From assembly GCA_964592405.1 (NCBI GenBank), contig CAZQBY010000001.1, forward strand, positions 18,459-82,458: 64,000 bases of DNA. The letters run 5' to 3'. The stretch's first letter is position 1. Every line of letters begins with the position of its first letter. Positions 1,056-58,903 of the stretch are shown piece by piece. Position numbers and translations under genes: made by a program. A model generated the notes under the pieces. That model worked only from the letters and a program-made list of their open reading frames with translations. It was not told the DNA's origin and did not search any database. Source of the stretch: an uncultured archaeon. GTDB taxonomy: Archaea; Altiarchaeota; Altiarchaeia; JAFGQM01.

Positions 1056-1129
1056 GCCGCTGTAGCTCAGTCTGGGAGAGCACCACGCTGAAGACGTGGG
1101 TGTCGCGGGTTCAAATCCCGCCGGCGGCA
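1056..1129 (+). tRNA. tRNA-Phe(GAA), intronless
   Basis: GCCGCTG/CGGCGGC acceptor, CCACG-CTGAAGA-CGTGG anticodon arm, TTCAAAT T-loop. Confidence 0.97.
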
Positions 1130-1218
1130 TCTCGCTCTTATTGGCTCGGCCTCAATGCCGCTGGCTTATGCCAAAGAGGTTACCTAAGCGAGGAGCTCTT
1201 TGCCATCCGCGTCGGCAT
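1130..1218 (+). repeat. tRNA-trailing ~90-bp element (Phe copy)
   Basis: 1141-1198 aligns to 48694-48752 at ~70% by hand; ends in degenerate copy of tRNA 3' end (ATCCGCGTCGGCAT). Confidence 0.65.
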
Positions 1219-1396
1219 TCTGAAGGACAAGAGCAGAGGCGGGGTGGTGGGGCCGCTGACTAAGGGCCCCGACAGGGCGGTTAAAATGGATAATAATTGA
1301 GGCATCAATTATGAAGGAAAAATCCCCACACAGGGTTGATCCAGAAAAAGCTGTGAGGGTGTTGGACATAAAGTAAGGACATCAGTCTACTCAAAA

Positions 1397-1822
1397 ATGA
1401 GCAGATCATCGACTCTTATATTGGTTCTCCTTGCAGTGATTGCGGCGGGTTTTTTCTTGGAATATATCTCAAGGCCACCTCTTCTCAGCCGGGGCCCGGG
1501 GCTTGAGTTCTCGCATTTCTCCAGAAATCTGGCCGAATGTATGAACCAGAGCAGGGCAAATGTTGCTGAAGCCCGGTGGATTGGAAACAACAAGATGCAC
1601 ATCCAGGCTCTTGGACTCTTTGTCAACTGCGCGTGCTCTGTGGGTTCTGGCGGATACCGTGTTGATGGTGATAAGATAATCCTCCAGTATGAGGAGATAT
1701 GCAACAGGCCGAAGGATGAGTCCTGCAGTATCTGTGAAGAGCTGATCTATGAGATAAAGGATTTGGAGCGGAAGGACTACACATTTGAGATGGAAAGGAT
1801 AACTTTAAGCAATTATCTCTGA
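1397..1822 (+). CDS. Hypothetical membrane-anchored Cys-containing protein
   Basis: N-terminal hydrophobic helix, six Cys (VNCAC, CxxC); abuts next gene. Confidence 0.7.
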   Translation: MSRSSTLILVLLAVIAAGFFLEYISRPPLLSRGPGLEFSHFSRNLAECMNQSRANVAEARWIGNNKMHIQALGLFVNCACSVGSGGYRVDGDKIILQYEEICNRPKDESCSICEELIYEIKDLERKDYTFEMERITLSNYL

Positions 1823-1823
1823 C

Positions 1824-3722
1824 TTACTCTTCCCCCAGCATCTCACTGGTTTTCAGTCTTTCCTGTGCCTTTAACTCGTCTATCTCCTTAATCAGGTCCT
1901 TGTCCAGCCGGTCCAGGAGCTCAGCCCGTTTCTTCCTCTCCAGAAGTTCAATCTCCTTCAGTTTTTTCCTAAGGACCCATTCTGGCCCTTCTTTCAGTGC
2001 CAGCTCAACCCGCTCACTGGCCTCTCTGCCACCTAGTAGCTTCAGGTGTATGATAAAATCTGCGCCCTCCCTGTAGAATTTTATCGCATGCTCAATAGTC
2101 TTTGCTGTAACAAAGACTAAGGCATCCGGGTTCTCCCCCTTGACTCTTTTGATAAGCAGAAGACTGTCATCCTCATCGGGTACTGTCGAAATCACAAGTT
2201 TGGCATCCTTGAGGCGCACTTTCTGCAGAACCTCAGCATCCTCCAGATCTCCATATATTGAGGGTATCTTTCTCCTGACAAGCCTTTTGATTATCTCCGG
2301 ATTGTGGTCCACAACAATGACATGTTCTCCAAGCTTCATGAGGCTTTCGATTACCTCCATCCCCATTATATGTGCACCGAAGACAACCACATGGTTTTTT
2401 GGATACTTGTCTGGAAAGTGCTCAAGCTCTGTTTTGAGCTTCATAAAACTGAACTTCTCAAATCGTGCCAAGGTTCCAGAGAAGGGAATGTAAAGGGAGT
2501 TTCCATATCTGATGAGGTAAGGTGTGATGGACATGCTTATCAGCGCCAGCAGAAGGGTCATCGGAAAGACTACCGACTGCGGGTCAGTTACTGCCAGAGC
2601 CATCGCCAGTATTAGTGAAAACTCGGATATCTGCGCCAGACCAATCCCTGAGAGGAAGGAGGTCCGTCTTTCATAACCGGTTAATATGCAGAGAAGGGTT
2701 ATCAGCAGGGGTTTTAGCACCAGAACCAGAATCGAGAATATTATCACCGGCAGGATAAGATTCTCGATGCCCATCACCGGATAGAACTGCATGCCCAGTG
2801 AGACAAAGAATACTATGGCGAAGAAGTCTCTCAGAGGCTTTATGCGGTTGGCCACTTCGAGATTGTAGGGGAACACTGCCAGACTGAGGCCGCCCAAGAA
2901 ACCTCCTATGGCCGTTGAGAATCCAAGCACATGGCTGGATATTGCGAACAAGAAGGCGAATGAGAGGGCAGTCATGAATACCAGCTCCACGGATTTTGAA
3001 ACAGCTTTCAGTATCCGTGGAGAGATATATCTGCTTAGCACAGTCGCGAAGGAGAAGAGGCCGATTACCCTTAATATGGAACCAAAGATGTCCATAACCA
3101 CTCCGTTATTGGAAGATGCAAGTACTGAGAGGATTATGACAACTATTATATCCTGCATAAGCAGAATACCAAGGGTTATTCTGCCGTGTAGGGTCTCAAG
3201 TTCGTCTCTGTCGGATAGTATTTTAATGACTACCAAAGTGCTGCTAAATGCCAGTATCAGGCCCATGTATATGGCATCGCCATGGACAAATCCTATGGCC
3301 AGCGCCACCAAAAAGCCCAGTGCGAATGTCAGCCCTACCTGACTGGTGCCTACCAGTATAGCGGCCCTGCCAACGTCCTTGAGTCTGGACAAATCAAGCT
3401 CTATGCCGACAGTGAACAGGAGGAATGTAATCCCCAGCTCAGACAGGGCTCTAACGAAAAGCGGGTCATTTATGAGGGTGGTTCCGAAGAATAATTTGGC
3501 CCCTATCGGCCCCAATACAACACCGGCCACAATATAAGCGGGTATGAGCGGCTGTTTGAGTCCGGCAGCAAGGAAGGCAAATATTGTTGCAGCCAGGATT
3601 ATCAGACCCAAGTCAGACAGTATAGCTACCTCAGCTTCTATTCCCGGCTTTATGCTCTCCACCTGTGCCGTGACCAGGGGCAAAAACACTAACAGGGCTA
3701 TTAGCACAAACTTCCACTTCAT
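1824..3722 (-). CDS. CPA2/Kef-type cation:proton antiporter with TrkA-N (RCK) domain
   Basis: Multiple TM helices, LAFSST..K, QD motif, GLAQISEFS; C-terminal HVVVFGAHIMG...YGD. Confidence 0.93.
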   Translation of the reverse strand: MKWKFVLIALLVFLPLVTAQVESIKPGIEAEVAILSDLGLIILAATIFAFLAAGLKQPLIPAYIVAGVVLGPIGAKLFFGTTLINDPLFVRALSELGITFLLFTVGIELDLSRLKDVGRAAILVGTSQVGLTFALGFLVALAIGFVHGDAIYMGLILAFSSTLVVIKILSDRDELETLHGRITLGILLMQDIIVVIILSVLASSNNGVVMDIFGSILRVIGLFSFATVLSRYISPRILKAVSKSVELVFMTALSFAFLFAISSHVLGFSTAIGGFLGGLSLAVFPYNLEVANRIKPLRDFFAIVFFVSLGMQFYPVMGIENLILPVIIFSILVLVLKPLLITLLCILTGYERRTSFLSGIGLAQISEFSLILAMALAVTDPQSVVFPMTLLLALISMSITPYLIRYGNSLYIPFSGTLARFEKFSFMKLKTELEHFPDKYPKNHVVVFGAHIMGMEVIESLMKLGEHVIVVDHNPEIIKRLVRRKIPSIYGDLEDAEVLQKVRLKDAKLVISTVPDEDDSLLLIKRVKGENPDALVFVTAKTIEHAIKFYREGADFIIHLKLLGGREASERVELALKEGPEWVLRKKLKEIELLERKKRAELLDRLDKDLIKEIDELKAQERLKTSEMLGEE

Positions 3723-3824
3723 CTTGGTTGGATATTATTAGAATGATTAAATAAATGGTAAATAAAATAACAAATGTTAAATAAAATAACGGCCATAAAA
3801 TAGGATAATCTATTTAGGGATAAT

Positions 3825-4508: not shown

Positions 4509-4530
4509 CTGAATCAGAATTAGAATTCTT

Positions 4531-6422: not shown

Positions 6423-6515
6423 CTAGCTTTGGAGCGGATAATAAAAAAATCCGATATCTGGTATATTACTTTCAGTAATATCAGCATTTTTGAGGATGGA
6501 CCCAAAAAATAGGCC

Positions 6516-7696: not shown

Positions 7697-7728
7697 CTCA
7701 TCCCTTCTTTATTCTCCCAGCCAGTTTT

Positions 7729-7995: not shown

Positions 7996-8414
7996 TATAT
8001 CGCCCTCACATCTCTCTCAGTCTCTTTGAGCATCAACAGGTCATTCTCCTTTACCGGCCCGCGGACATTCCGTCTTAGGAGATTGCCGCGGTCCTTACCC
8101 TCAAGAACCCTGACCAAAACCTGGTAACACTCCCCATACAAGCCAACCCTCTTGAAAACCTTGATTACCTGGGCGGGTGTAGCATCACTGATATTTACTG
8201 TGCTCTTGTTTCGTTTGCCTGACTTTTTGCCCTCCTCGGATTTTGGCCTCTCTGCAGTATCCCCCCCGGATTTTTCAGCCTTTGAATCCTGTTTTGGGAG
8301 TTTGGATACAGTCTCCCTTCCCTTAGATTCTGCATCTTCTCCAAGCTTCTTCGGGCTAGGAGCTTTTGTCCCGGTTTCATCTGCCAGCTTTTCCTCTTTC
8401 TTCTCCTCAGTCAT
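7995..8414 (-). CDS. rps28e: Ribosomal protein S28e with long N-terminal extension
   Basis: C-terminal PAQVIKV.KRVGLYGE..QV.VRVLEG...RRNVRGPVKENDLLMLKETER; between rpl7ae and rpl24e. Confidence 0.92.
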   Translation of the reverse strand: MTEEKKEEKLADETGTKAPSPKKLGEDAESKGRETVSKLPKQDSKAEKSGGDTAERPKSEEGKKSGKRNKSTVNISDATPAQVIKVFKRVGLYGECYQVLVRVLEGKDRGNLLRRNVRGPVKENDLLMLKETERDVRAI

Positions 8415-8778
8415 TCTTCAAAAGCTTCTCGACATCCTTCTGCAGATTTTCAATATCCTTTTTTGCCTTCCCCTCATCAACAACAGCTACAGATGATGTG
8501 TTCACTTTCAGACCAGCAGATTTACCAAGTTCATCTTTGGTCTTGACATACAGGAAGGGGATATTTTTCTCCTTACAAAGGATAGGTATATGGAGCAACA
8601 GCTCAGGCGGATCCACATCCTCTGCCATGACTACGAACTTTGCTTTGCCGCGTTCGATAGCTTTCGTTACCTCGTTTACGCCAATCCTTATCTTACCAGA
8701 TGTCCTGGCTATCTCTACGGCTCCAAGAGCCTTTTCCGCAAGAGCCTGCGGGGTTTCAAATTTTATATATGTTGCCAT
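8407..8778 (-). CDS. rpl7ae: Ribosomal protein L7Ae
   Basis: GKIRIGVNEVTKAIERG, AEDVDPPE, LGKSAGL. Confidence 0.97.
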   Translation of the reverse strand: MATYIKFETPQALAEKALGAVEIARTSGKIRIGVNEVTKAIERGKAKFVVMAEDVDPPELLLHIPILCKEKNIPFLYVKTKDELGKSAGLKVNTSSVAVVDEGKAKKDIENLQKDVEKLLKND

Positions 8779-8785
8779 TGTTCTT

Positions 8786-13557: not shown

Positions 13558-13573
13558 GATTTAAAAGAGAAGG

Positions 13574-13712
13574 TGGGCCTGATGGGATTTGAACCCATGA
13601 CATCTGGCTTGCTCAGAGCCTTTGGATTCCCGTCGGGAGTCCTCAGCAAGGGTGCGCGCGGCACCCAAGCCCGTATAAGACCAGCGCTCTGACCAAGCTG
13701 AGCTACAGGCCC
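13574..13712 (-). tRNA. tRNA-Ile(TAT) with 64-nt intron at 37/38 (13610-13673)
   Basis: GGGCCTG/CAGGCCC-A acceptor; CTGGT-CT-TAT-A|intron|A-GCCAG; BHB central helix CTTA/TGAG with two 3-nt bulges. Confidence 0.9.
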
Positions 13713-18420: not shown

Positions 18421-18485
18421 GAAAGCTCGCCAAGGCAGAAACCAATCCGGATTTATATTCAAATCATCATAAATAATCACTAGAA

Positions 18486-18853: not shown

Positions 18854-19513
18854 ATGGCAAGTGGTTCCTGGACGTCAATACCGGACACTGGAAGTATAGC
18901 TGCTCCGGCACCGGACATCAGCACAATACTGCTGGCTGTAGCTCCATTCATAATATTCCTGCTGGTTCTCTGGTGGGGCTCAAGGAAGAAGGCCAGAAAG
19001 AAAATAACTATAGAGATGGCCTATAATCTGATAGCCCTTCAGCTTCTGGTTTTTCTGTTTTTGCCACTATGTGAGCTACCATTCGAGTGCGGTGTGTGGG
19101 CACTGATACCCATTGCAATGTTCGCTGGATTGGTAGCTTTTGTCTATTATCGCATGTCAAAGGAGGCCCAGCATCATATGCGCGTCATAAAGGCTATCCA
19201 GGAGGGGCACATAGGGTATGCTGAGGTTCTCCAGGGCCAAATTGAAGAAGAGATCGCCGAAGCCGAGAGGAAGGCTGGGAGCACTGGGAGTGGAGAGGGC
19301 ACAGAAAAGACAATGGCCAAAGAGCCGGAGGGAACTGCAGGGGAGAGAAAAAAACCTGCAACGGAGGAAATACCAGATGATGGCCCCGAGATTTCCCGGG
19401 AGCACCCGGAGCACAAAAAGATAGAGCGCATAATACTCAAAGTCCTAAAGAAGAAGGGCGCTATAAGGAAGAGTACCACGTCAAAGAAATCCAGAAAGAA
19501 ATCTGGGAAATAA
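18854..19513 (+). CDS. Hypothetical membrane protein (3 TM, charged tail)
   Basis: Three hydrophobic segments, Lys-rich C-terminus. Confidence 0.7.
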   Translation: MASGSWTSIPDTGSIAAPAPDISTILLAVAPFIIFLLVLWWGSRKKARKKITIEMAYNLIALQLLVFLFLPLCELPFECGVWALIPIAMFAGLVAFVYYRMSKEAQHHMRVIKAIQEGHIGYAEVLQGQIEEEIAEAERKAGSTGSGEGTEKTMAKEPEGTAGERKKPATEEIPDDGPEISREHPEHKKIERIILKVLKKKGAIRKSTTSKKSRKKSGK

Positions 19514-47219: not shown

Positions 47220-48122
47220 ATGCCAAAGGATACAAACAGATCATCACAGAACCTTGGATATGGCCGGTATCTGGAGACAAGCAATATAAGGCTGTCCCCA
47301 ATACTTTGGTTCATTGTAGCCATAGTCATGGCTGCAGTCCTAAGTTTTATACTCTTTTTGGCCTTCCCAAATAGCCCGGCAATTTCCCTGATTGCCATAG
47401 TGGTAATCCCTATACTCATTATAGGCCTCCCCATAATCATGAAAGAAAGGCGTGATGGACATATTGAGGAGGCAATACCTGACGTGTTCGAGGAACTGGC
47501 CACCTCACTGAGGGCAGGTGCTACAATAGAGCAGGCCCTTCTAGACCTGACGAAGATACAGAAAGGTCCGCTCATAGATGAACTCAAGACCGCCCTGCAG
47601 GATATGGAGGGCGGGTTCAGCTTTGAGGAGGCATTAGAGAACCTCATTTCCCGGGTGGACATAGTCATGCTGAAGCGGATATTCAAGATAGTCATAGACG
47701 GCAAGAAGGCTGGTGGAGAGCTGGCTAACATACTGGATGCGGTAGCCTCCGATGCAAGGGAAATGGCGCGCCTGAGCAGAGAGCGGATGAGTAAGACCCT
47801 TATGTATGTAATATTCATCTTTGCAGCCGGCTCGGTGGTGGCACCTCTGATATTTGGATTCGTGACTGAGATAGGGTTTATGGTAGCAAATGTGGGAGCC
47901 ACAGTAGAGGTGGAAAACCCCCTTAATATACCCGGAACAGGCATAAACCTATTCTGGCTCTACCTCCTATTGGAGTGTTTTATCTCTGGCATAATGCTGG
48001 CCGTTGTCCGGGGTATCAAGATCTGGAGGGGGATAGTTTTCTATTCCCTATCCATGGCGCTTTTGGGCACCATAGTATTTGAAGTGGCCAAGACAATAGC
48101 AGCATATATGCTCGCTGTATGA
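47220..48122 (+). CDS. T2SS-F (TadC/TadB) platform protein
   Basis: PDVFEELATSLRAG, GGELANIL, multiple TMs. Confidence 0.9.
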   Translation: MPKDTNRSSQNLGYGRYLETSNIRLSPILWFIVAIVMAAVLSFILFLAFPNSPAISLIAIVVIPILIIGLPIIMKERRDGHIEEAIPDVFEELATSLRAGATIEQALLDLTKIQKGPLIDELKTALQDMEGGFSFEEALENLISRVDIVMLKRIFKIVIDGKKAGGELANILDAVASDAREMARLSRERMSKTLMYVIFIFAAGSVVAPLIFGFVTEIGFMVANVGATVEVENPLNIPGTGINLFWLYLLLECFISGIMLAVVRGIKIWRGIVFYSLSMALLGTIVFEVAKTIAAYMLAV

Positions 48123-48215
48123 GTCCTATTCCTGTTCCAATATAAGTTTTTGTTTCTCTTTAAGCAACACTTTTTATCACACAACACACAAAATAAAGCC
48201 GCTATATCTCATCTT

Positions 48216-48289
48216 GGGCCCATGGTCTAGCCTGGTATGACGTCGCCTTGACATGGCGGAGGTCGCCGGTTCAAATCCGGCTGGGCCCA
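48216..48289 (+). tRNA. tRNA-Val(GAC), intronless
   Basis: GGGCCCA/TGGGCCC acceptor; TCGCC-TTGACAT-GGCGG. Confidence 0.97.
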
Positions 48290-48324
48290 TTCCAGTCTTC
48301 TCTTGGTTTACGGTTTTCTGAAAA

Positions 48325-48507
48325 ATGCCTGTTGTTAGAGTGAGTATGTGGGAAGGGAGAACGCGCGAGCAGAAGGCGGAGCTGGCCGAGGCTATAACCA
48401 AGGCGATCTCCGAAATCGCCAAGACGCCCAGGGAGCATGTATGGGTCATCTACGAGGACGTCAATAAGAGCGACTGGGCGATAGGCGGGAAACTCTGCGA
48501 CGAATAG
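48325..48507 (+). CDS. 4-oxalocrotonate tautomerase family protein
   Basis: Pro-1, GRTREQK, WAIGG. Confidence 0.92.
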   Translation: MPVVRVSMWEGRTREQKAELAEAITKAISEIAKTPREHVWVIYEDVNKSDWAIGGKLCDE

Positions 48508-48556
48508 GAGCCCCTGGCTGCGTAAGCCCTTTTATATCAAAAAACGCAAACTATAC

Positions 48557-48681
48557 GGGCCCGTAGCCTAGTCAGGATAGGGCGACAGCCTTCTACGGCC
48601 TTTTCTTCATTTGGGGAAGAACGGTTCGCTAAGAGATCCGGAGAAAGCTGTAGATCGCGGGTTCGAATCCCGCCGGGTCCG
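48557..48681 (+). tRNA. tRNA-Arg(TCT) with 50-nt intron (48596-48645)
   Basis: GGGCCCG/CGGGTCC acceptor; ACAGC-CT-TCT-A|intron|A-GCTGT; BHB helix CTTC/GGAG. Confidence 0.93.
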
Positions 48682-48772
48682 TCCTCATTCTTCTTGGCTT
48701 AGCCTCGGCCGAACCCGGCTTATGTCAGGGAGGGTGGCTAAGCGAGGAACTCCTCGAAATCCTGCCGGATCC
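48682..48772 (+). repeat. tRNA-trailing ~90-bp element (Arg copy)
   Basis: Related to Phe and Thr trailers; ends in AATCCTGCCGGATCC (13/15 match to tRNA 3' end). Confidence 0.7.
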
Positions 48773-48855
48773 ACTTTAAATTCTTAAGCTCTTGTTGTAT
48801 TTTTTTAACTTTGTTGATTTAGCTCAATTCGCTACGTCTTCTAAATTTATAACCG

Positions 48856-49500
48856 TTATAGCTTCTTTGCCACAATAAACCAATAGACGTGAGTATGCGG
48901 ACTTCCGTGTGTATGTTCTTCACTCAATTTTTTTAATTCTATTGTCTCAAAATCTGAAAAATCAGACCTCACTTCATCCTCTTCAAAGAATCTGCCTATT
49001 CTGGCTTTTCGCTTTACGTAGAAGGTGCGTAGAGCTACTTCCTCGCCTTCTCCAAAGGTGGAATCATCTGTTGAGAAAAAGGATTGTATAATCAACCCCC
49101 CCGGTCTAAGGACTCTCTCACATTCCTTTAGGAACTTCCTTCTCACGTCATCCCGGTACAACAAATGCATAAAGAGGTGGCTAAACACAACATCAAATGC
49201 CTGGTCTTGAAAAGGCATATTAGTTGCATCCGCCTTTATGAATGTCCCATCTGGTACAAACTCTTCTGCAAGTTTTATCGCTTCGCCACTTGAATCCAAA
49301 CCTACAACATCAAATCCCTGCTCTATGAAGAATTTGCAATCTCTTCCGTAGCCACAACCAACATCAAGAATTTTGCTCTTCGGTTTTAGATACTTTATAG
49401 ATTCTAAGGCGGTTGGACTTTCTGTTTCGCCCCAAACATAGCCATTCTTCTTAAATCTCCTATCCCACTCTTCAGAACTTTCCATTGTTCTATTAAACAT
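48856..49500 (-). CDS. Class I SAM-dependent methyltransferase
   Basis: ILDVGCGYGR, GLDSS, ADATNMPF, RVLRPGG. Confidence 0.92.
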   Translation of the reverse strand: MFNRTMESSEEWDRRFKKNGYVWGETESPTALESIKYLKPKSKILDVGCGYGRDCKFFIEQGFDVVGLDSSGEAIKLAEEFVPDGTFIKADATNMPFQDQAFDVVFSHLFMHLLYRDDVRRKFLKECERVLRPGGLIIQSFFSTDDSTFGEGEEVALRTFYVKRKARIGRFFEEDEVRSDFSDFETIELKKLSEEHTHGSPHTHVYWFIVAKKL

Positions 49501-49648
49501 TATTTGTCATATCTGGAATAAGAATATCCAAAACACCTCGCAGCACCCTCAACTTTTCGGGGGCGCAACCTTAAACCAAAATTCCGTTTTTAGGCCTACG
49601 CCGGGTCCACACATTTTTTATTCAAGAATCTGCAGTTTACATAACAAG

Positions 49649-50146
49649 ATGTCTCCCAGAAGGCGCCCCCGAAGTCCAGAGGAATTGAAAGCCCTTAGGG
49701 CTAGGTTGGCCGACCGTCTTAGTGAGGGCGATCCTATGTGCAGGATTTGTGAGTTTAAAAGGGTACATCCGATGCCATCCAAATGCAAGATAAGGGGAAA
49801 TCCTGAAATAGCTCCATTTGGCCACGTCCTGGATCCCCTTTCTTGTGTGGGTGTAAGATGCAACCATGGTTTGGAGGCTGCCAGCAGGGCTCTTTCAAAA
49901 GCAAAGAGGGGGGAGATCAAATGGCAGAGAATAAAAACAGATATAGGTGAAGTTGAGGCCGTTCCCTGCCCCACCCATCTTGCCGGCCCGCCGGCCAGTA
50001 ATAAGTCTCATGTAGTCTCTCCAGTTCCAAAAACCGGCTATGTCGATCGGAATGGCCGCCTTTTTGTGGAAACTGAAGCCAAGGGTTTGATATTCAACCA
50101 CCAGACCCTGCCAGATGACAGAAACCCCTTCAAGAAAAAGGACTGA
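49649..50146 (+). CDS. Hypothetical basic Cys/His-rich protein
   Basis: MSPRRRPRS start, CxxC plus further Cys/His. Confidence 0.6.
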   Translation: MSPRRRPRSPEELKALRARLADRLSEGDPMCRICEFKRVHPMPSKCKIRGNPEIAPFGHVLDPLSCVGVRCNHGLEAASRALSKAKRGEIKWQRIKTDIGEVEAVPCPTHLAGPPASNKSHVVSPVPKTGYVDRNGRLFVETEAKGLIFNHQTLPDDRNPFKKKD

Positions 50147-50265
50147 GTGGCCAACCAAAAATCTTTTCTCAGGAGGCGTTTATCTCTCCAGAAATGCACT
50201 GTAGCCCCTGCCAGATGGTTACTGTCTCCGGGAGAACTGCCTGCTGTTCATTCCTAAATCATTAT

Positions 50266-50844
50266 TCATCCTGAAGCCAGAATCAGGAACAGCAGACTCC
50301 CCAGGACTGCATGGCTGAATATGGGCCCCACAAGATTCCGCTCCTTCTCATAGGCCCATCCCCACGCGAAGCCGGCTATGAGGGTCGTCAGCATCACGAT
50401 TCCGACCTGCGGGATTCCTATGAAAAAATGGGAAAGCGAGAAGATGAGTGATACCGTGAAGACGTTCGCCAGGGTCGGCAGGGCCCCTCTGAGGACTCTC
50501 TGCCCATAGCCCCTGAATATGAACTCCTGCGCGGGCACGGAGATGCCCCAGTAGGTCAGATACTCAGGATTCGGCATCTTAAGCCCGTATCCGTTGGCCA
50601 GTGCGAATATCGCCAGCCCCGCGACGCCCGCTATAGTGAAAGGTAGTTGGATCTTGATTGCCGGCCATACCCTCTTGCTGGTTAGACCGAGATTCTCAGG
50701 CCTTTCCCGCCTCCAGTAGTTGAAGAGCGCGATGAAGCCTATCACAGTGCTCATGCTCATGTAATAGTCCGCGCCCCTCAGCAGCATGAAGGCAGAGATT
50801 GCCAGAATCACTGCGATTTCGAAAATCCTGCGGGCAGTATCCAT
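50266..50844 (-). CDS. CPBP (Abi/CAAX) intramembrane protease
   Basis: QEFIFRG, FSLSH, SHAVL. Confidence 0.88.
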   Translation of the reverse strand: MDTARRIFEIAVILAISAFMLLRGADYYMSMSTVIGFIALFNYWRRERPENLGLTSKRVWPAIKIQLPFTIAGVAGLAIFALANGYGLKMPNPEYLTYWGISVPAQEFIFRGYGQRVLRGALPTLANVFTVSLIFSLSHFFIGIPQVGIVMLTTLIAGFAWGWAYEKERNLVGPIFSHAVLGSLLFLILASG

Positions 50845-50988
50845 CTATTATCTTACGTCTGCCGACTGAAAAACCGTTTTTACCGTTAAATAAATTATGC
50901 AGCAGGCAGAGTTATTTAACGGGTCAGGTCAAGTTGAAAGACGCTAGATGAAGACTTGACCTTTTTATGTTCTCTTGCTATAATATCC

Positions 50989-51035
50989 CAGTCAGGCCGG
51001 CGAGTCGCTTATGCAAGCATCGCTCGCCCAGACTG
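50989..51035 (+). other. Structured leader hairpin of tRNA-Trp (core shared with tRNA-Thr leader)
   Basis: CAGTC/GACTG, GGCGAG/CTCGCC, GCTT/AAGC nested stems; 50999-51029 is 27/31 identical to 58595-58625. Confidence 0.75.
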
Positions 51036-51079
51036 TAACGGGGTCGTAGGGTAGTCTGGCATCCTCGCAGGCTCCAGAG

Positions 51080-51188
51080 AACCCCTTTTCTTCAGAAGAA
51101 AAGGTGCGCGAGGTTCGCGAAAGCGAACCCGCGCCCAAGTTCACAAAAGTGAACTTCGGGCTTCACCCCCCTAAAAGAACGGGGTGTT
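51080..51188 (+). repeat. Four-hairpin intron-nested element, copy 1
   Basis: Near-identical to 58705-58808. Confidence 0.92.
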
Positions 51189-51208
51189 TAGCATTTTTAA
51201 TTTTCAGG

Positions 51209-51268
51209 AAGAGGACTTTGGAGCACCGAGCCGCAAATCGCGGTGATGACGAAACGCGGGTATACGCT
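51209..51268 (+). ncRNA. Intron-encoded box C/D guide for tRNA-Trp positions 34 and 39
   Basis: Guide CTTTGGAGC + D' CCGA (5th nt pairs C34); C' GTGATGA; guide GCGGGTAT (5th nt pairs C39); terminal boxes degenerate. Confidence 0.8.
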
Positions 51269-51392
51269 TCGGCATGGAGATACCTGCTGACCCGGGTTCA
51301 AATCCCGGCGACCCCATCCTTACTTATGCTAGAGATAGCTCGGATGTGGTCGCCTTACGTTGGAGCCGTCTGCCTGGCATGTCCATCCCAAC

Positions 51393-51408
51393 ATCCCGGC
51401 GACCCCAT
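51393..51408 (+). repeat. Exact 16-bp duplication of tRNA-Trp 3' end
   Basis: ATCCCGGCGACCCCAT at 51302-51317 and 51393-51408. Confidence 0.9.
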
Positions 51409-52515
51409 TCATCCCAATCTAGGCTCGCACACTATATCGTATAGCTGACCCAGCCTTTTGACCATGACATCTAAGGAGTACTCTTTCTCCACCAGCTTCC
51501 TCCCATGTCTGGCAAGCTTCTTCCTCCTCTTCTTGTCCTCGATGAGCGCATCCACCTTCTCCGCCAGACCATTGGCGTCTCTTGGCTCTATCAGGAATTC
51601 GGGATCTATTACATCTTTAGCGATTCCTGTGTTGGTCGCTATACATGGTGTTCCAGAGGCGAGCGCCTCCAGCAGAACGATACCTTGGGTTTCCATCTCC
51701 GATGGCATAACAAACAAGTCAGCAGCTGCAAAAGCCTGCGGAATCAACTCATCTGGCAGATAGCCTGTGAAGATTATATTTGGCATGTCCCTGCACATTT
51801 TCCTAAGCTTCTCCTCGAGCTCTCCTCTGCCGGAAACAACAAAAACGGCATCAGATTTTGATTCTATAGCCGCGCGAAGGAAAGTTTGTGGGTCTTTCTT
51901 GTGCTCCAAACGCCCAGCAAAGAAGACCATCGGCCTGTCTGGTATTCCATAGCGGTCCCTGAATTGCTGGGAATCAATATCCGGGCTGAATTTTTTTATG
52001 TTAACCCCATTGGGTATTATCTCAATATGTCTTCCAAGCTTTCTTGCCTCCAGCTGGGTCTTCACCCATTCTGAGGTTGCAATAACAACATCACATTTTC
52101 TGTACAAATATATCAGATACTGCCATGTCGGCCATGTTAGCAACCTGCCACCTGCAGAGTCCAGGGGTACCAGTGCTCCGAAGATTGCAGCCGGATCAGT
52201 ATGGAAACTGCCTACCAATGGCTTTCCAAGCCTCTTTGAAATTTTTATTCCATAGTAAAACATCCCATAAGGAGTATGATTATGAATCAGGTCAAAGTCC
52301 CTTGCCTCTTTTTCCAGCCAGCCGGTGTTTAAGGCGATTTTATATTCGGGAAACAGAGGGAATGGAATACCTGATACCCCTGTCACGTCTGGATGCTTTA
52401 TTGGACCAAATATCTGGTCATCCCAACCTTTTTTTGTGTGGTGCAACCCATAGAGGATGGTGGCTATGCCGTTATTATGTGGAATATATGTATCCGTGAA
52501 GTTTGCAATTCTCAT
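51409..52515 (-). CDS. GT4 glycosyltransferase
   Basis: FTDTYIP..NG, IPNGV, PSEMETQGIVLLEALASG. Confidence 0.93.
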   Translation of the reverse strand: MRIANFTDTYIPHNNGIATILYGLHHTKKGWDDQIFGPIKHPDVTGVSGIPFPLFPEYKIALNTGWLEKEARDFDLIHNHTPYGMFYYGIKISKRLGKPLVGSFHTDPAAIFGALVPLDSAGGRLLTWPTWQYLIYLYRKCDVVIATSEWVKTQLEARKLGRHIEIIPNGVNIKKFSPDIDSQQFRDRYGIPDRPMVFFAGRLEHKKDPQTFLRAAIESKSDAVFVVSGRGELEEKLRKMCRDMPNIIFTGYLPDELIPQAFAAADLFVMPSEMETQGIVLLEALASGTPCIATNTGIAKDVIDPEFLIEPRDANGLAEKVDALIEDKKRRKKLARHGRKLVEKEYSLDVMVKRLGQLYDIVCEPRLG

Positions 52516-52520
52516 CTTTC

Positions 52521-53900
52521 TTACGCCACCTCATAGATTTGCGAATCCCCAGAGGAGAAGACAACCGTTCCAATCTCAGAAAATTTGTCTGTATCAAAGC
52601 CGTAATTCCAGACATCCCGCGCATCTACAACGACATAATCCACACCATATCTCCCCAATATGTTGCGCGCCTCTTCCGGATCGCTGGTTTTCAGCACATG
52701 ATACATTCTCTCCCATCTGGTGCTATCAGGTATGCATTCCAGAAACAAATCAAACTCCGTTCTTATTGAGGGAGACATTAGCAGTGTATTTATCGCTCCA
52801 GAGATCTCAGGATTTGCAAGCACTGTGCTGTCTCTAATATGATCCCTTATCCAGTAGATAACAGCCAAGTCATCATTCGAGAGGGCAGGCCTGACCATTG
52901 CCACGGCCAAGAAAGACATAACCAGCATCACCACCAACACAATTATAACATACCTCCTCTCAAGCCTTGCTTCAGGCAGTACAAAGCAGAGGCTAAAGCC
53001 AAAGAGCAGCAGTTGGTCATATGGATGCAGTTGTGGGAATATCAGAGAGAGCAGAAACCCCACAACAGCTAATCCCAATACCACCCTCCAAAACAACATA
53101 TAATCATCATTTCTTTTTCTGAGCCAATAAAGCAGGCCAAAGCCTATCAGAGTAACAAATGGGGCCATGATGAGGAGATAGCCCATGCCTGCGCTGGTCA
53201 CAGATGAGACTGCAGTTGACGGATCAAAACACTTACCTGCCCGACTGAATGATACCAACAACCAAGGGGATACCAGTCCGACACCAATGGTTATGATGAG
53301 TGCCGCATAGAGGAGGGAAAGCCTCCTGCCTCTTCCCAGCTTTATAAGGCTGAAGACTGTAATCACAGCCACTATTGTGAGGCTTATGAAATAGTTGAAG
53401 AGTATGCAAGTAGCCAGTATGCCGCCTCCCAGAATGTATCTGCCTCTGAGGAGACAATAGGCTATCAGTGGGAAGAGCAACAGGCCAAATATCTGCGGGC
53501 TGTCATAGGACTGCGCTGTTATTATCGGATTTAGGGCTGTGAAAGCAGCGCCCAGAACTGCAGCCTCTACGCTGCGGTATTTCCTTATCAGAAAGAAGAT
53601 AGGCAGGATAAGAAGTGCACTCGCCAGAGGCAGTATGTATTTTACCAGTTCAATAGCCGGGATTCCTGATATTATACTCGTATAACCCAACAACAGATGA
53701 TATAACGGCGGATACAGATGAGGTCTCCCTCCTGCTGCATAATCCCAAGATGGGACCCAGCCGGTTTCCGCCACAATCTGTCCTATGCGCGCGTGATATA
53801 TCGAATCAAAATTGACCAGAAAATCGTTGGTCAGTGGGGGGTATATCCGGATGCTCAGACTCAATAAAAACAGGCCTATGATAACATATCTAACCTTCAT
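52521..53900 (-). CDS. Multi-pass GT-C-like membrane protein
   Basis: FDSIYH, YPPLYH, ~10 TM, C-terminal YGVDYVV. Confidence 0.75.
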   Translation of the reverse strand: MKVRYVIIGLFLLSLSIRIYPPLTNDFLVNFDSIYHARIGQIVAETGWVPSWDYAAGGRPHLYPPLYHLLLGYTSIISGIPAIELVKYILPLASALLILPIFFLIRKYRSVEAAVLGAAFTALNPIITAQSYDSPQIFGLLLFPLIAYCLLRGRYILGGGILATCILFNYFISLTIVAVITVFSLIKLGRGRRLSLLYAALIITIGVGLVSPWLLVSFSRAGKCFDPSTAVSSVTSAGMGYLLIMAPFVTLIGFGLLYWLRKRNDDYMLFWRVVLGLAVVGFLLSLIFPQLHPYDQLLLFGFSLCFVLPEARLERRYVIIVLVVMLVMSFLAVAMVRPALSNDDLAVIYWIRDHIRDSTVLANPEISGAINTLLMSPSIRTEFDLFLECIPDSTRWERMYHVLKTSDPEEARNILGRYGVDYVVVDARDVWNYGFDTDKFSEIGTVVFSSGDSQIYEVA

Positions 53901-54891
53901 TGAGAACCACCTCATAGACTTCTTTTAACTGCATGCCCACCTTCTCTAGGGAATGCTCCTTCACACTCTCCAGCCCATTCCTGATCAGGCGTTTCCTCAT
54001 GTTGCCATCCTCAATCAGTTGTCTTAGATAATCCTCAAATTCCTCATCAGTTTTCGCTCGTAGGCAGTCTTTTCCATCACGAGTCCAGTCGCGAAAGACA
54101 GGCAGATCGCGTATCAAAACAGGTCGCCCCATAGCCCAAGCCTCCAGTATGACTATGCCCTGCGTCTCTGCAAGCGATGGAAAAAAGAATATGTCTCCTG
54201 CTGAATAGGCTGCTACTATATTATTGACATAACCAGTAAACCTGACGTTATCCGGCTTGCTTTCTAGGGCTTCATCCAGCTCCTTGTTTCTGGCCAGACC
54301 TCCCCTGAAAACATTGCCAAACCATATGAACTGGTTCTCAAAACTCCGTGCCACTTCTATGAACGTTCTGACACCCTTTCGCATGAAGACATGACCCACG
54401 GAGAAGGGAACCATGCCTTCCATCCCGTATCTCTCCCTGTATTCCTGCCTTTCTCTTTTGCTAAACCTGAATCTGTCCAGGTCAACACCATTGCTCACAG
54501 TTGTTATTGACTGTTTCAGCCCGTATTTCTTAAGCTGGTTTTTTGTGTATTCGCTGGGACAAATTATATGATCAGCCTGACCATAAAAGAATTTGAGATA
54601 TCTCTTGAAAACCGGAGCCAGTGTGTTACTCATAACAAAGCTGTTACGGGTATCCTCCTCCAGTGTGTGGGCATGTATGATAACCTTTCTGCCCTTCTCT
54701 TTGGCTAGTTTGGTGTAGAACAGGGATTTTGGAAATATGGTATTTATATGGAGGATATCATAATCATCCAGCGGGTTTGTAGTGTATTCCACCCCGGCCT
54801 TTTCCAATGCCTTTTTTTGTCTCTCCAGTGCTACCCCTATGCCGCTTCTTCTCAGCAGCAGATTGCCCTCAAGATACAGGCACACCCTCAT
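53890..54891 (-). CDS. GT4 glycosyltransferase
   Basis: SGIG, VSNGVD, FFPSLAETQGIVILEAWA. Confidence 0.93.
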   Translation of the reverse strand: MRVCLYLEGNLLLRRSGIGVALERQKKALEKAGVEYTTNPLDDYDILHINTIFPKSLFYTKLAKEKGRKVIIHAHTLEEDTRNSFVMSNTLAPVFKRYLKFFYGQADHIICPSEYTKNQLKKYGLKQSITTVSNGVDLDRFRFSKRERQEYRERYGMEGMVPFSVGHVFMRKGVRTFIEVARSFENQFIWFGNVFRGGLARNKELDEALESKPDNVRFTGYVNNIVAAYSAGDIFFFPSLAETQGIVILEAWAMGRPVLIRDLPVFRDWTRDGKDCLRAKTDEEFEDYLRQLIEDGNMRKRLIRNGLESVKEHSLEKVGMQLKEVYEVVLNEG

Positions 54892-55987
54892 TTTCTAAAT
54901 CCTCATAAATCCTCACAAGCTTTTTGATAGTATTCTCAATACTGTGCTTCCTTGCATGTTTTTTTGAGGACGATTTTAATCTTCTGAGATTCCTGTAGGA
55001 CATCTCTACTTTTGTCTTTAAGTCGCTCAGATCTCCGGGTTTGTAGTGGTAACCATTAACTCCAGCCTCTATGGTTGTCTTTAGAGCCATTGCATCAGCA
55101 CCCACTGCCGGCGTTCCACAGGCGTTTGCCTCTAAAACTACGAGTCCTTCTGTTTCAGCTGTGGAAGGCAATATCAGAAGATCCAGACAGGAATAAAACT
55201 CCGGTAGCCGGTTCCTCGGAAGAAAACCAAGAAAGCGGACGTTTTTCTTTCCCTCCGCAAGTTTCTTGTACTCTTCATGCTGTTTGCCCCCGCCGACTAT
55301 CAGAATTGTTCCGTCAAATTCGTCAGCAAAATTTATTAAATCCTCCAGACGCTTCTCCCAGGAGTGCCTGCCGGCGAATCCGATAATCCTACCGTCTGGA
55401 ATATCATAGTCACTTTTGAACTGGTCCGTTCTCGTCTCTTTGAAGAAGTCAGTGTCTATTCCATTTGAAAATGCTATTGTTTTGGAGATGTATCTGCCAA
55501 GACGCTCCCTGAGCAGATTTATCAGAACAGGGGATGGAGCAGTTATCAGCTGGCATCTCTCAAGAAGCTCCTTCTCATATCGGTAATAAAATACCTTGAG
55601 TGATGCTTCTACCAAGGGGTTGGAGCTTATCTGCCTGATATAGAGGTCGGGGGGAGTATGGTAGGTCAGCACCCGCGGCACCCTCTGCTTCCTAGCCACG
55701 GCCAGCCCGAGAGTTGCCATGGTGACGAAGCCGTGGAGGTGAACCATCTCCAAATTTTTTTCTATCTTCTTGAAGGAGGGCAGGCCTATCCTGTATCCCT
55801 CATAGAAGAAGAACGGAATGGAGGGGAGCGGAATCTCGTTATGCTGGGGTTTGTAACCCTCATCCTTTGGATAATAAAGGAAGACCTCATGACCCAGCTT
55901 CTCCAGCTCCCGCTTCCAGAGGCTGACCGTGTAGGTAACGCCGTTTATCTGCGGAAAATATGTGTCTGTGAAGAAGCCTATTTTCAT
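54869..55987 (-). CDS. GT4 glycosyltransferase
   Basis: FFTDTYFPQINGV, SNGID, PSTAETEGLVVLEANACG. Confidence 0.93.
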   Translation of the reverse strand: MKIGFFTDTYFPQINGVTYTVSLWKRELEKLGHEVFLYYPKDEGYKPQHNEIPLPSIPFFFYEGYRIGLPSFKKIEKNLEMVHLHGFVTMATLGLAVARKQRVPRVLTYHTPPDLYIRQISSNPLVEASLKVFYYRYEKELLERCQLITAPSPVLINLLRERLGRYISKTIAFSNGIDTDFFKETRTDQFKSDYDIPDGRIIGFAGRHSWEKRLEDLINFADEFDGTILIVGGGKQHEEYKKLAEGKKNVRFLGFLPRNRLPEFYSCLDLLILPSTAETEGLVVLEANACGTPAVGADAMALKTTIEAGVNGYHYKPGDLSDLKTKVEMSYRNLRRLKSSSKKHARKHSIENTIKKLVRIYEDLENEGVPVS

Positions 55988-56000
55988 CTTAAAACATCCC

Positions 56001-56990
56001 CTAAATTATCTTTAAGAGAATGTAAAGCAAGGTCCAGAAGAGAGTGTTGTTGATTACTATCACGAGTATCTTTCGCGAGAGCGCCTTCTCGGTCATCGGC
56101 CCCAGCTTGCTTATGATGAGCTTGGCGAAATCCAGTTTGCCCGATTTGGGGACGTGCAACCTGCCGTCTTTCAAAACGTAGGGTCTCTCCTTCTTCTGGC
56201 TCATGTCCTCCGGATTGGTCTTCAGCTTGAGCAGTATGTCATATATGTGGGGCGCGAACAGCCCTAGGGCCAGATACCACTGATCTATGAAGAGGACCAT
56301 GCAGCCGGCGAAGGCACCGAAGAGGAGTGTGCCGCTGTCGCCGGGGAAGATGCGTGCAGGATAGCGGTTGAAATAAAATAATCCTCCTGCGGCCCCAACC
56401 ATTATCAGACCGAGGATTATAAGCGTGTCAGTATAAATGCGGGAGAAGGTAACCATGATTGTCAGACCTGCCAGCACTATCGTGGAGGATCCTGTCTCCC
56501 AGCCGTTGAGTCCGGCAAAGGAGTTGAACAGCGATGCTGTTGCAAGGATAAGGAAGCTCCCCAAGACCATATAAAGATACAACCCTATACCGCATTCGTT
56601 GATAACCGACGGGAGCACCAGATATGTGAAGGGCAGGGTAAAAATGAAGAGAACAATCGCGCGATTGACAACATATTTTGTCCACCTCTCCTCTCTCTTG
56701 AACAGCCGAAAGCCGTCATCAAAAAAGCCTATTGCGGCAAAGCATGTAGTGGTAAACAGAAATACGTATGCCAGCGGATTTATAACCTCAAAATGTACCA
56801 ACAGCAGGACGGGTATCCATATTCCGGGCAGGATGAGTATGCCACCGGATTCGGGAATGCGGGGTTTATCCCCTTTGTTTATATCCACGCCACTGATACC
56901 AAAAGACAGCATCCTGTCCTTCAGCAGCCGGATCAGGATCAGTACCAGCACAAAAGGGACAGCGAATACTAGGGGGTATGTCCACTCCAT
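56001..56990 (-). CDS. MraY/GPT-family polyprenyl-phosphate HexNAc-1-phosphate transferase (AglH-like)
   Basis: IPESGG, GFFDD, NSFAGLNGWE, NRYPARIFPGDSGT. Confidence 0.87.
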   Translation of the reverse strand: MEWTYPLVFAVPFVLVLILIRLLKDRMLSFGISGVDINKGDKPRIPESGGILILPGIWIPVLLLVHFEVINPLAYVFLFTTTCFAAIGFFDDGFRLFKREERWTKYVVNRAIVLFIFTLPFTYLVLPSVINECGIGLYLYMVLGSFLILATASLFNSFAGLNGWETGSSTIVLAGLTIMVTFSRIYTDTLIILGLIMVGAAGGLFYFNRYPARIFPGDSGTLLFGAFAGCMVLFIDQWYLALGLFAPHIYDILLKLKTNPEDMSQKKERPYVLKDGRLHVPKSGKLDFAKLIISKLGPMTEKALSRKILVIVINNTLFWTLLYILLKII

Positions 56991-57024
56991 GGTTTTGCCT
57001 TATGTCATTATACTCTTCCAAAAA

Positions 57025-58167
57025 TCATTTCATAAGCTCCCTCAGGAGTATTGTCGCATAGGTGCCAGGAGGGAGAACAAATCTTACCTTTATGTTAGAA
57101 TCTTCTTTATTAAAACCAAGAATCATGAAGTCGCTGAACTTGGCAAGACTGCTCCGCATTTCCCCCTCCATGGCCATCTCAGGCATGGAGGGAACCCGAA
57201 ACTGTCCTTTGTGGATTTCTTCTCTTTTGAGTATCTCTTCTGTAACGTTATCTAGTGGTGTAGTATAACCAACAAGCGGTAGCTCTTTTGGCATTTCTCC
57301 AGACCTAAGGTATTCGCTTAATGCAAGATTGAATATATACCCCTGATATGCATGGATAAACATTAGTCTCAGCTTCTTCGGAAGAACCCGCAATGCGCCG
57401 ATGTAGTCTGTAGGCGTTTTTGCCAGATGATTCAATACACTTTTCTCAAAGCCCAGATAGTTGGGGAACTCTTCAAAGGCTTTCTTAAAGTCTCCTGTTT
57501 CCCTCAGCCTTTCCCTGACTGTGGTGGCTTCCTCCGGCTCGTTGCCAGTATCACAGAGAAATGACATGACAGCCTCCTTGAACTCGCCCCCGAGTATATG
57601 CCGGCCTACAAGATGGTTGTTGAGCCGCAGACCAAAGCGTTGCGTGCCGAAGAAGTTGGGCATCTTTCCATCCAGTTGCCTGATGGTTTTCTTTACAAGC
57701 TTGTCAGCATTTTTTGCAACATCGTGGATGATGACCGTAAACCGGTTTCCCTTAAGCATCCCAAGATTGACCGGTCCATCCGAAACGGAAAAGTCGCGCA
57801 GGATTATGTCCCTAATGTGCACTCCTTCTAACCTCTCTTTCGGCACTTTCCATATGGAAACCCTCTGTGCACTGACTGACCGGCGGTCTTTCGTCCCGGC
57901 AAATTTCAGTCGTTTGTGGGAGACTCCGCATGCGCGTGCAATGGCCTTAACTGCACGCATGGTGTCCCAGTTGGTCTTCTCCAGCGTGAAGTGGGTGTAA
58001 TCTCCCTGAGTGTCCTTAAAGCACTGGTTTTTACCCACCTCCAGAATAACTCCCCCAGGGGTTATCTCCTCAACAATAAAATCTCTGGGCTCCCTCTTTA
58101 AGGTCCCGCCTATGCCCTTGGTTTTTGATAAATATGCGAGCAGTCCTACCCTCTCATCAGTGGACAT
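57025..58167 (-). CDS. truD: tRNA pseudouridine(13) synthase
   Basis: DFIVEE, AGTKDR, GNRF, NFFGTQRFG, HAYQ, GTYAT. Confidence 0.95.
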   Translation of the reverse strand: MSTDERVGLLAYLSKTKGIGGTLKREPRDFIVEEITPGGVILEVGKNQCFKDTQGDYTHFTLEKTNWDTMRAVKAIARACGVSHKRLKFAGTKDRRSVSAQRVSIWKVPKERLEGVHIRDIILRDFSVSDGPVNLGMLKGNRFTVIIHDVAKNADKLVKKTIRQLDGKMPNFFGTQRFGLRLNNHLVGRHILGGEFKEAVMSFLCDTGNEPEEATTVRERLRETGDFKKAFEEFPNYLGFEKSVLNHLAKTPTDYIGALRVLPKKLRLMFIHAYQGYIFNLALSEYLRSGEMPKELPLVGYTTPLDNVTEEILKREEIHKGQFRVPSMPEMAMEGEMRSSLAKFSDFMILGFNKEDSNIKVRFVLPPGTYATILLRELMK

Positions 58168-58405
58168 CTCTGGTATCTGGGTTTCTGAGATTGATATAGA
58201 TGCCCTTCTTCAGACACTCCTTACAGAAGTATTGATTATCGCAATCAATAAGGATTGCTTCATCCCCTGATGTAACCTGCTCTATGATTGCCCTCACATA
58301 GCTGCTCCCCTTGCCGAGAACCCTTCCACAATTGGAGCAGTATTCCTTTATCTCTGTCAGGCTTTCGGGCAGCTGGGCCATTTCCGATTTATTTAGAGAG
58401 GGCAT
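58157..58405 (-). CDS. Small zinc-binding hypothetical protein
   Basis: CSNC...CKEC; overlaps truD start. Confidence 0.65.
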   Translation of the reverse strand: MPSLNKSEMAQLPESLTEIKEYCSNCGRVLGKGSSYVRAIIEQVTSGDEAILIDCDNQYFCKECLKKGIYINLRNPDTRDVH

Positions 58406-58517
58406 ATTAAAAAACCTTTCTTTATAAACAAGGATGTTAAAGAGGAAAAGAATAAAAACCTCTTTAATGCGCCTTAAAAAGCTTTGCTATTCCGTTACTT
58501 TTCACCGGTGACAAGGA

Positions 58518-58572
58518 GTTACACTACACTTAAATGCTTTTTCGTTTTCGCACTCTTTTTATGTAGTGTAAC
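58518..58572. promoter_or_regulatory. Inverted pair of GTTACACTACA motifs bracketing TATA-like CTTTTTAT of tRNA-Thr
   Basis: 58518-58528 and reverse complement 58562-58572. Confidence 0.6.
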
Positions 58573-58665
58573 ACAAAATATCCCGCTTCAGATAGGCAAG
58601 TTGCTTATCCAAGCACCGCTCGCCCGAGTTAAGCGCGAGCATAATCCAAGCGAAATGAGCCGCTT

Positions 58666-58860
58666 GCCTCCGTAGCTCAGTCTGGTAGAGCGCGTCCTTG
58701 GTAGAGCCCCTTTCTTCAAAAGAAAGGTGCGCGAGGTTCGCGAAAGCGAACCTGCGCCCAAGTTCACAAAAGTGAACTTCGGGCTTCACCCCCAAAGAAC
58801 GGGGTGCTGTGGAAACAGCCAATGAGGACGAGGTCGCGGGTTCGGATCCCGCCGGGGGCT
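58666..58860 (+). tRNA. tRNA-Thr(GGT) with 121-nt intron (58704-58824)
   Basis: GCCTCCG/CGGGGGC-T acceptor; CGTCC-TT-GGT-A|intron|A-GGACG; helix TTGG/CCAA; T-loop TTCGGAT. Confidence 0.88.
58705..58808 (+). repeat. Four-hairpin intron-nested element, copy 2
   Basis: Near-identical to 51080-51188. Confidence 0.92.
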
Positions 58861-58903
58861 TTCCGTTATTCTTGGCTTAGCTTGAGCCCCCGGCTTATGT
58901 CAG
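58861..58903 (+). repeat. tRNA-trailing element (truncated Thr copy)
   Basis: TTCTTGGCTTAGC and CCCGGCTTATGTCAG identical to Arg trailer. Confidence 0.75.

Follow-up and report, generated by a model that had tools for sequence, protein, structure and literature searches.

Mobile DNA classically lands at tRNA genes, and repeats of a tRNA tail are normally read as the footprints of large elements. Work by Williams in 2002 reportedly dealt with elements that tyrosine integrases have inserted at tRNA genes. Casposons insert at tRNA 3′ ends with a target duplication of 14–15 bp. Integron attC sites, stacked at one platform, are imperfect palindromes with conserved unpaired positions, and in the minihelix processing signals known as t-elements, which have a free discriminator and 3′ tail and are processed by RNase P or tRNase Z, the stem imitates an acceptor stem on top of a T-stem. 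According to passages of one article, tandem re-use of tRNA attachment (att) sites by integrated elements is known, and tandem casposons are mentioned (PMC6563490). The closest described phenomenon, going by its description in parts of another article, is that of the tRNA-linked repeats (TLRs) of Escherichia coli: their 22 units are spread over ten loci with one to five units each, always immediately following a tRNA or rRNA gene, and the 3′ end of the unit is the last 18–19 bp of the upstream gene (PMC8144298, citing Egan & Landy 1978 and Rudd 1999). The same passages state no known function for the tRNA-linked ones. Here we analyze a stretch of archaeal DNA of 64,000 nt (the window; positions 18459–82458 of contig C1 of genome G000) in which tRNA genes are followed by units of about 90 nt, each closing with a repeat of the 3′ end of its tRNA. 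A preliminary description of the window had noticed such repetition behind several of its tRNAs; it is real and is spread much wider than claimed, over 15 of the 33 tRNA genes of G000 and over 8 of 8 genomes of the GTDB family concerned (f1). The units are a real, structured, family-wide family of tRNA-linked repeats.

Results

Distribution and significance of the units

G000 is an intron-rich archaeal metagenome-assembled genome (MAG) of 1.13 Mb in 22 contigs, 87% complete, with 33 tRNA genes called by ARAGORN, and its DNA is contained in hydrothermal-vent metagenome runs, with no RNA run among them. Ten clear units had first aligned as one family; the alignment used below (A1) comprises 12. 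A covariance model of the family (R1) was used to search the eight genomes of f1 (G000 to G007, G000 included) and 53 other genomes of the phylum. In G000 it gave 13 matches at 11 tRNAs, all 13 abutting a tRNA or an array of units, and the union of these with copies of a 12-mer (at most two mismatches, 11 tRNAs) makes up the 15 unit-bearing tRNAs. Each of the seven other f1 genomes held 4–19 matches, and none was found in any of the 53 genomes from the rest of the phylum. Of the 86 non-redundant matches from the eight genomes, the majority begin no more than 3 nt from a tRNA end, and most of the others begin at multiples of about 90 nt; for eight of them, ARAGORN gave no upstream tRNA. The host tRNAs in f1 cover nearly all amino acids and amount to about 20 different tRNAs in four genera. 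This genome-wide and family-wide spread had been missed in the preliminary description, as had an inverted copy of the tRNA end that is present in every unit.

Chance resemblance can be excluded. Among 20000 random 14-mers of the window, only 6 recur 60–120 nt downstream with no more than one mismatch, and a copy of the terminal 14-mer (at most two mismatches, within 600 nt) was found downstream of 9 of the 33 tRNAs of G000 but upstream of only 1 of 33.

Anatomy of the unit

Units measure 67–141 nt, mostly 85–97 nt, and stand behind the tRNA singly or in tandem arrays of up to four or more. As had been proposed, they are gene-less, no open reading frame (ORF) lying within them, and have a copy of the tRNA 3′ end at either border. 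Behind the discriminator base follow a linker, the inverted copy, a core hairpin and the direct copy. The linker of about 25 nt is rich in T and C (77% pyrimidine over its first 12 nt). The inverted copy corresponds to the last ~12 nt of the tRNA, extended over two to three bases behind the discriminator, and the direct copy of 15–16 nt begins with the final two bases of the T-loop and stops at the discriminator, without CCA. Minimum-free-energy (MFE) folding gave one and the same long hairpin for 6 of 10 units, composed of an outer stem in which inverted and direct copies pair, a small internal loop, a 3-bp step and an inner stem of 5–7 bp. A mismatch recurs in the hairpin at the position matching acceptor pair 3:70. 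In A1, 80.7% of the cells pair, as compared to 29–45% when the 3′ partner is slid; double changes occur in 12 of 20 pairs, and none of 500 shuffles reached the observed score.

Two core types account for the 86 units, type A with near-invariant loop motifs (48 units) and type B (38 units). Further kinds are short units of 67 nt at tRNA-His, Ser-type units and type-E units of 100–141 nt. A type-E unit of G002 contains a nested small hairpin that is found three times in G000, every time within a tRNA intron.

Both end copies follow the tRNA to which the unit belongs. In 41 of 77 units, the direct copy agrees with that tRNA at no fewer than 13 of 14 positions, whereas other-isotype tRNAs reach this in 8 of 680 comparisons; in 26 of 77 units, the inverted copy is complementary to its own tRNA at 9 or more of 11 positions, as against 11 of 691, the cross-isotype counts being approximate because ARAGORN isotype labels are partly wrong for intron-bearing tRNAs.

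tRNA genes and units in the window

Six tRNA genes are present in the window, all of them on the plus strand, as are the units, except for tRNA-Ile(UAU). Default ARAGORN detected two of the six; Rfam and the intron mode of ARAGORN detected them all, the four missed ones having escaped because they bear introns (50–204 nt). As several of the 22 scaffold gaps of 100 N in G000 fall within unit arrays, there is a practical side to this: the arrays break assemblies, and default tRNA finders miss intron-bearing tRNAs.

Behind tRNA-Trp (51040–51316, found by the ARAGORN intron mode and from sequence, with an intron of 204 nt), the terminal 16-mer at 51302 recurs exactly 91 nt further on, at 51393–51408, just as first reported. 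The spacer had been credited with only weak similarity to the others, but the segment 51319–51411 is in fact a full member of the family (R1 66.2 bits), with an MFE hairpin of z −2.15. For tRNA-Arg(TCT) (48556–48682, Rfam 55.1 bits), an intron-bearing gene whose intron-less G005 orthologue is called Arg(tct), the recurrence of the end at 48667 after 92 nt, at 48759, was likewise found, at 12 of 15 positions and not at the 13 of 15 claimed; the copy is perfect in strain variants on contigs of two other runs, which differ at 48758, 48763, 48769 and 48773. The unit here (48683–48777, R1 69.3 bits) has a type B core. So does the one behind tRNA-Phe(GAA) (tRNA at 1055–1131, ARAGORN and Rfam, 68.2 bits). 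Its end copy is as degenerate as had been described, with a best ungapped match of 8–9 of 15 and gaps; yet the segment 1130–1223 is a full unit (R1 60.1 bits) and its MFE fold is the family hairpin. The Phe and Arg units are indeed related to each other, at an identity of 58 of 94 aligned columns (62%); roughly 70% over 59 nt had been given earlier.

The two remaining plus-strand tRNAs are followed by partial units. Behind tRNA-Thr(GGT) (58666–58860, ARAGORN intron mode, intron of 121 nt), about 43 nt of the 5′ part of a unit (58861–58903; linker, inverted copy and start of the core) match in nhmmer and share with the Arg unit the exact blocks of 13 and 15 nt already noticed; this partial unit is cut off at the stop of a convergent ORF (58900–60636 in the ORF list). 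The unit-like sequence reported for tRNA-Val(GAC) (48215–48290, ARAGORN and Rfam) is there, but amounts to a linker-like remnant of about 24 nt (48291–48314, recognized from its sequence); full units are present at the orthologues in G003, G005 and G007. The minus-strand, intron-bearing tRNA-Ile(UAU) (13572–13712, Rfam 59.1 bits), whose label is taken from the ARAGORN call on its G006 and G007 orthologues, has no unit and constitutes an empty site, with ileS beginning 15 nt past it.

The preliminary description had also pointed to GGCTTA-like words at regular spacing. They are found at 48696, 48717, 48736 (the last one as GGCTAA) and 1163 and belong to the conserved layout of the family; an iteron-like spacing of GGCTTA and TATG words, considered as a candidate, obtained no support from the statistics.

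Turnover and exchange of units

Within a genus, units are gained, lost, duplicated and replaced, and the flanks stay conserved. The array at tRNA-Arg(TCG) consists of a type A unit and a fragment in G000 and of type B and type E units in G001 and G002, with the downstream flank and gene conserved between G000 and G002. At tRNA-Arg(TCT), one unit in G000 compares with two in G001 and two in G005. The unit at tRNA-Ile(UAU), absent in G000, is present in G002, G003, G006 and G007, and at tRNA-Lys, G002 has a unit that G000 lacks, with the sequence past the G002 unit resembling that directly past the G000 tRNA. Filled and empty sites are therefore available among relatives for tRNA-Ile, tRNA-Lys and tRNA-Val(GAC).

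The closest relative of a unit interior was located at a tRNA for a different amino acid in 58 of 77 cases, a count that is approximate for the reason of labelling given above. In one pair of G001 units, the interiors are 95% identical, inverted copy included, and the direct copies differ, each fitting its own tRNA. Identical tandem copies at tRNA-Val(TAC) and tRNA-Ser(GCT) show that slippage or unequal crossing-over occurs; different core types also stand side by side within arrays.

Our preferred reading, to which we give about an even chance, is that the units are lineage-specific, gene-less DNA modules that insert in the attachment-site zone of tRNA genes, are mobilized in trans and are transcribed passively along with the tRNA.

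Probable transcription and a possible role as RNA

The units sit between the tRNA and the first run of T4 or T5, a run that follows unit-less tRNAs within about 2–26 nt. Runs of five or more T occur in the linker of 7 of the 86 units and later in the unit in none of them. This position suggests that the units are likely co-transcribed with the tRNA. An element inserting exactly at the tRNA end would, however, place a unit before the T-run likewise.

A unit might be a functional structured RNA appended to the pre-tRNA and kept by selection at the level of the host, DNA turnover being secondary; it could serve as a processing or folding signal, as a mimic of the acceptor/T-arm minihelix or as a decoy. 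We consider this, the main rival reading, rather unlikely. The position ahead of the T-run, the scarcity of T-runs within units, the covarying stems and the near-invariant loop motifs of the 48 type A units all agree with it, as do the compensatory changes among orthologous units at tRNA-Ile in three genera. Nevertheless, with the two outermost pairs omitted, 42 G:U pairs stand against 75 A:C, so that the G:U excess of an RNA is not seen, and fold energies are barely better than those of shuffles (z +0.8 to −2.2). Pairing in substrates of RNase P and tRNase Z is not known to run through the discriminator and beyond, whereas in the units the predicted pairing covers the discriminator and two to three further bases. 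Moreover, one unit type takes the place of another within a genus, and numerous orthologous tRNAs are unit-less. The RNA of RNase P occurs in f1 and its neighbours alike, and no peculiarity of processing is therefore apparent. Inspection by eye of the MFE folds revealed no bulge-helix-bulge splice motif at the unit borders, with no dedicated tool having been run.

Integrase island and cargo inserts

The preliminary description had considered a landing zone shared by several tRNAs. Such a zone, common to many tRNA isotypes, is borne out by an integrase island and by ORF and toxin–antitoxin cassettes, with the same repeats on their flanks, in the arrays of relatives. In G003 (locus L359, 8209–19320, C38), an 11-kb element at tRNA-Thr(GGT) has an integrase of 370 aa (PF00589, 7e-20) next to the tRNA, further carries a winged-helix regulator, ATPase-like ORFs and an ORF of 1005 aa, and ends in a tRNA-end repeat of ~30 nt. 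Past it come an ORF, a tRNA-end copy and a unit, and then the same flank of 60 nt is repeated. G001 has two more integrases, beside tRNA-Ser and tRNA-Tyr. A tyrosine recombinase domain is also present in most other genomes of the class.

In G002 (locus L095, 640–1382, C16), VapC (PIN domain, 7.7e-19) and a MazE-type antitoxin, absent from the window, are found between the tRNA-Ile unit and ileS, and an ORF of 150 aa lies distal to the Arg(TCT) unit. The Ser array of G001 has an insert of two small ORFs, neither with a Pfam match, within the array. These cargo inserts of G002 and G001 are bounded by tRNA-end copies. Strict repeat matching gave a repeat-bounded insert of more than 500 nt in 2 of 56 arrays (81 tRNAs, flanks of 0.6–3 kb); looser repeats and one locus outside that set bring the cargo inserts to four in all, and in three of the four the unit is on the tRNA side of the cargo. 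Distant tRNA-end copies that would mark large islands were not found in G000 (at most one mismatch in 16 nt).

A GTCTTC-like word and its complement are repeated around the cargo elements, and in one case make up an arm-only element of ~100 bp; the loci are L017 (~1600–1700) and L062 in G001, L024 in G002 and L359 (~8290–8380 and ~19200–19290). These repeats are probably arm-type binding sites of the integrases of the lineage.

Past the Arg(TCT) units of G001, an arm-only stretch of ~100 bp holds the short repeats of cargo ends and is followed by a tRNA-end copy. The existence of such a mini-remnant speaks for units being decaying scars of larger elements, in which the arms of attL and attR are fused, and the identical tandem copies at tRNA-Val(TAC) and tRNA-Ser(GCT) for their being products of slippage without any insertion. 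Both proposals are highly improbable to us. The units belong to a single conserved family: their length is uniform, their stems covary and they occur at about 20 tRNAs across four genera; they lack the arm repeats of the cargo elements, and differing core types adjoin within arrays. The uniform excision scars of the preliminary description find no support, since one conserved hairpin-forming family with compensatory changes does not consist of decayed remains.

The cargo also bears on the question whether the unit is a recombination site, an attC-like folded imperfect palindrome, of an integron-like platform for gene capture on tRNA 3′ ends. The folded mimic of acceptor and T-arm would then be recognized by a recombinase in trans, tandem units being empty cassettes and the ORF or toxin–antitoxin inserts loaded ones. 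A hairpin of ~70 nt with a conserved mismatch and a variable tip would suit this proposal, as would the G003 arrangement of an ORF and then a unit, bounded by the repeated 60-nt flank, and the three further cargo inserts in arrays; the excess of A:C over G:U pairs would fit, if weakly, folding of the bottom strand. We nevertheless regard it as improbable, given that no integrase adjoins the arrays, that none with a PF00589 domain was found in four of the eight genomes, that so few arrays have a repeat-bounded insert under strict matching and that three of the four cargo inserts have their unit on the tRNA side rather than at the cargo's 3′ end.

Upstream blocks and intron modules

Typical tRNA promoters in this genome are T-rich boxes about 40 nt upstream; the conserved motif of the unit core, considered as a promoter, is unlike them and was rejected in this role. 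For some tRNAs, conserved upstream blocks replace the T-rich box. One such block is common to tRNA-Trp and tRNA-Thr (~51005–51035 and ~58600–58630), and like blocks are common to tRNA-Pro(GGG) and tRNA-Arg(TCG) (G000 C2 ~8575–8629 and C3 ~32150–32206). Ser-type tRNAs (G000 C5, C6 and C14) have a common upstream block that includes a copy of the tRNA 3′ end.

A module of ~105 nt is common to the introns of tRNA-Trp (51079–51195), tRNA-Thr(GGT) (58707–58815) and tRNA-Ala(TGC) (G000 C13 ~900–1010), its Trp and Thr versions being ~95% identical. In G000 the intron of tRNA-Ala(TGC) is 125 nt long, and its G002 counterpart 50 nt. It follows that intron modules, too, pass from one tRNA gene to another. 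Another part of the tRNA-Trp intron (~51246–51290) looks like a C/D-box guide RNA, with C-box-like and D-box-like words; a gathering scan with Rfam reported none.

Discussion

If the units are gene-less modules moved in trans, a unit would insert into a copy of the tRNA 3′ end and leave a sequence of ~15 bp on either side. The enzyme would be supplied from elsewhere, acting in trans; it could be one of the tyrosine integrases found next to tRNAs in this lineage, or an unrecognized enzyme. Unequal crossing-over and gene conversion between copies may then reshape the arrays. In the transcript, the inverted copy would pair with the duplicated tail and keep it off the true acceptor strand. We envisage a module that moves as DNA and whose inverted copy may be retained because, once transcribed, it sequesters the duplicated tail.

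Several observations weigh against this reading. The preliminary description had seen no integrase in the window, and PF00589 indeed had no match in the whole of G000, nor in G002, G005 and G007 (80–87% complete), not even of the Xer type. Cas1 was found in 0 of 5 f1 genomes. Y1 transposase is patchy, with occurrences in G002 and G007, a fragment in G000 and none in G003 and G005, and TnpB is patchy in f1 as well. The repeat of the units starts at the border of T-loop and T-stem, whereas the integrase-type repeats of the lineage include the T-loop; known integrases may not act on the units because of these different boundaries. Type A units at one tRNA-Ile in three genera differ by compensatory changes, which suggests selection on the hairpin in place, and a purely selfish immobile copy would not feel such selection. 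R1 had no matches among viral loci (80 with sequence of 118 matched in a first scan, all 8 in a second one) or in 80 metagenome loci with sequence (117 matched by core motifs), and scans of viral contigs and the metagenome with the core motifs gave chance matches only. Nothing was seen in motion either: strain variants showed up in contigs from four DNA runs covering 48000–59100, but joints of unit size, circles and empty sites did not (at low coverage, and in contigs only). Finally, all the genomes compared are incomplete MAGs, and the partly wrong isotype labels limit the data on exchange.

Whichever reading applies, tRNA-tail repeats here bound a uniform, structured, gene-less module of 90 nt, present at about half of the tRNA genes, exchanged between them and found throughout a whole archaeal family. 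None of the papers listed by full-text literature searches describes archaeal units of this kind. With a covariance model at hand, and with sites found both filled and empty, the mechanism becomes open to testing. Should the units be recombination sites, they would point to an unrecognized way of stacking genes behind tRNAs; should they be RNAs, they would be a new appendage of archaeal pre-tRNAs.

Comparison with known systems

Among the known systems, the archaeal units share with the TLRs of E. coli their position immediately downstream of a tRNA. The TLRs thereby gain an archaeal counterpart, similar in layout, with far more copies. The 3′ end of the archaeal units follows the same principle of repeating the tRNA tail, but the repeat is shorter, at 12–16 nt, and lacks CCA (16 of 16 for Trp; at least 13 of 14 in 41 of 77 units). 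The archaeal units are about 90 nt long and contain, in every case, an inverted copy that closes a conserved hairpin, and one family serves about 20 tRNA species across a whole GTDB family.

With the elements of tyrosine integrases, the units have in common that direct repeats of the 3′ part of the tRNA bound them and that the site is re-used into arrays. Relatives show filled and empty sites, and the G003 integrase island uses the same sites. Unlike those elements, the units have neither a gene nor an adjoining integrase, which only the 11-kb element of G003 possesses; they are of uniform length at 85–97 nt, their repeat does not span the T-loop, and they have an internal inverted copy. A duplication of ~15 bp of the tRNA end flanks the unit much as in casposons, but Cas1 was found in none of the five f1 genomes searched and the units have no visible terminal inverted repeats. 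A miniature element derived from IS200/IS605 would call for a Y1 transposase in the genome, which is patchy here, and for subterminal hairpins at both ends; the unit has one hairpin.

The stem of the unit mimics an acceptor stem on the T-stem, as t-elements do. In contrast to these, its predicted pairing passes the discriminator, and pair 3:70 is mismatched. Like attC sites and their cassettes, finally, the units are imperfect palindromes of similar size, with conserved unpaired positions, that are stacked and sometimes found behind an ORF, and toxin–antitoxin cargo occurs. An attC site is positioned at the 3′ end of its cassette, which agrees with the one G003 ORF that is followed by a unit, whereas the three other cargo inserts are arranged otherwise. 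Unlike in integrons, no gene of the IntI type was found in the genomes searched; the platform is the tRNA end, the arms of the palindrome copy the tRNA, and most units are without cargo.

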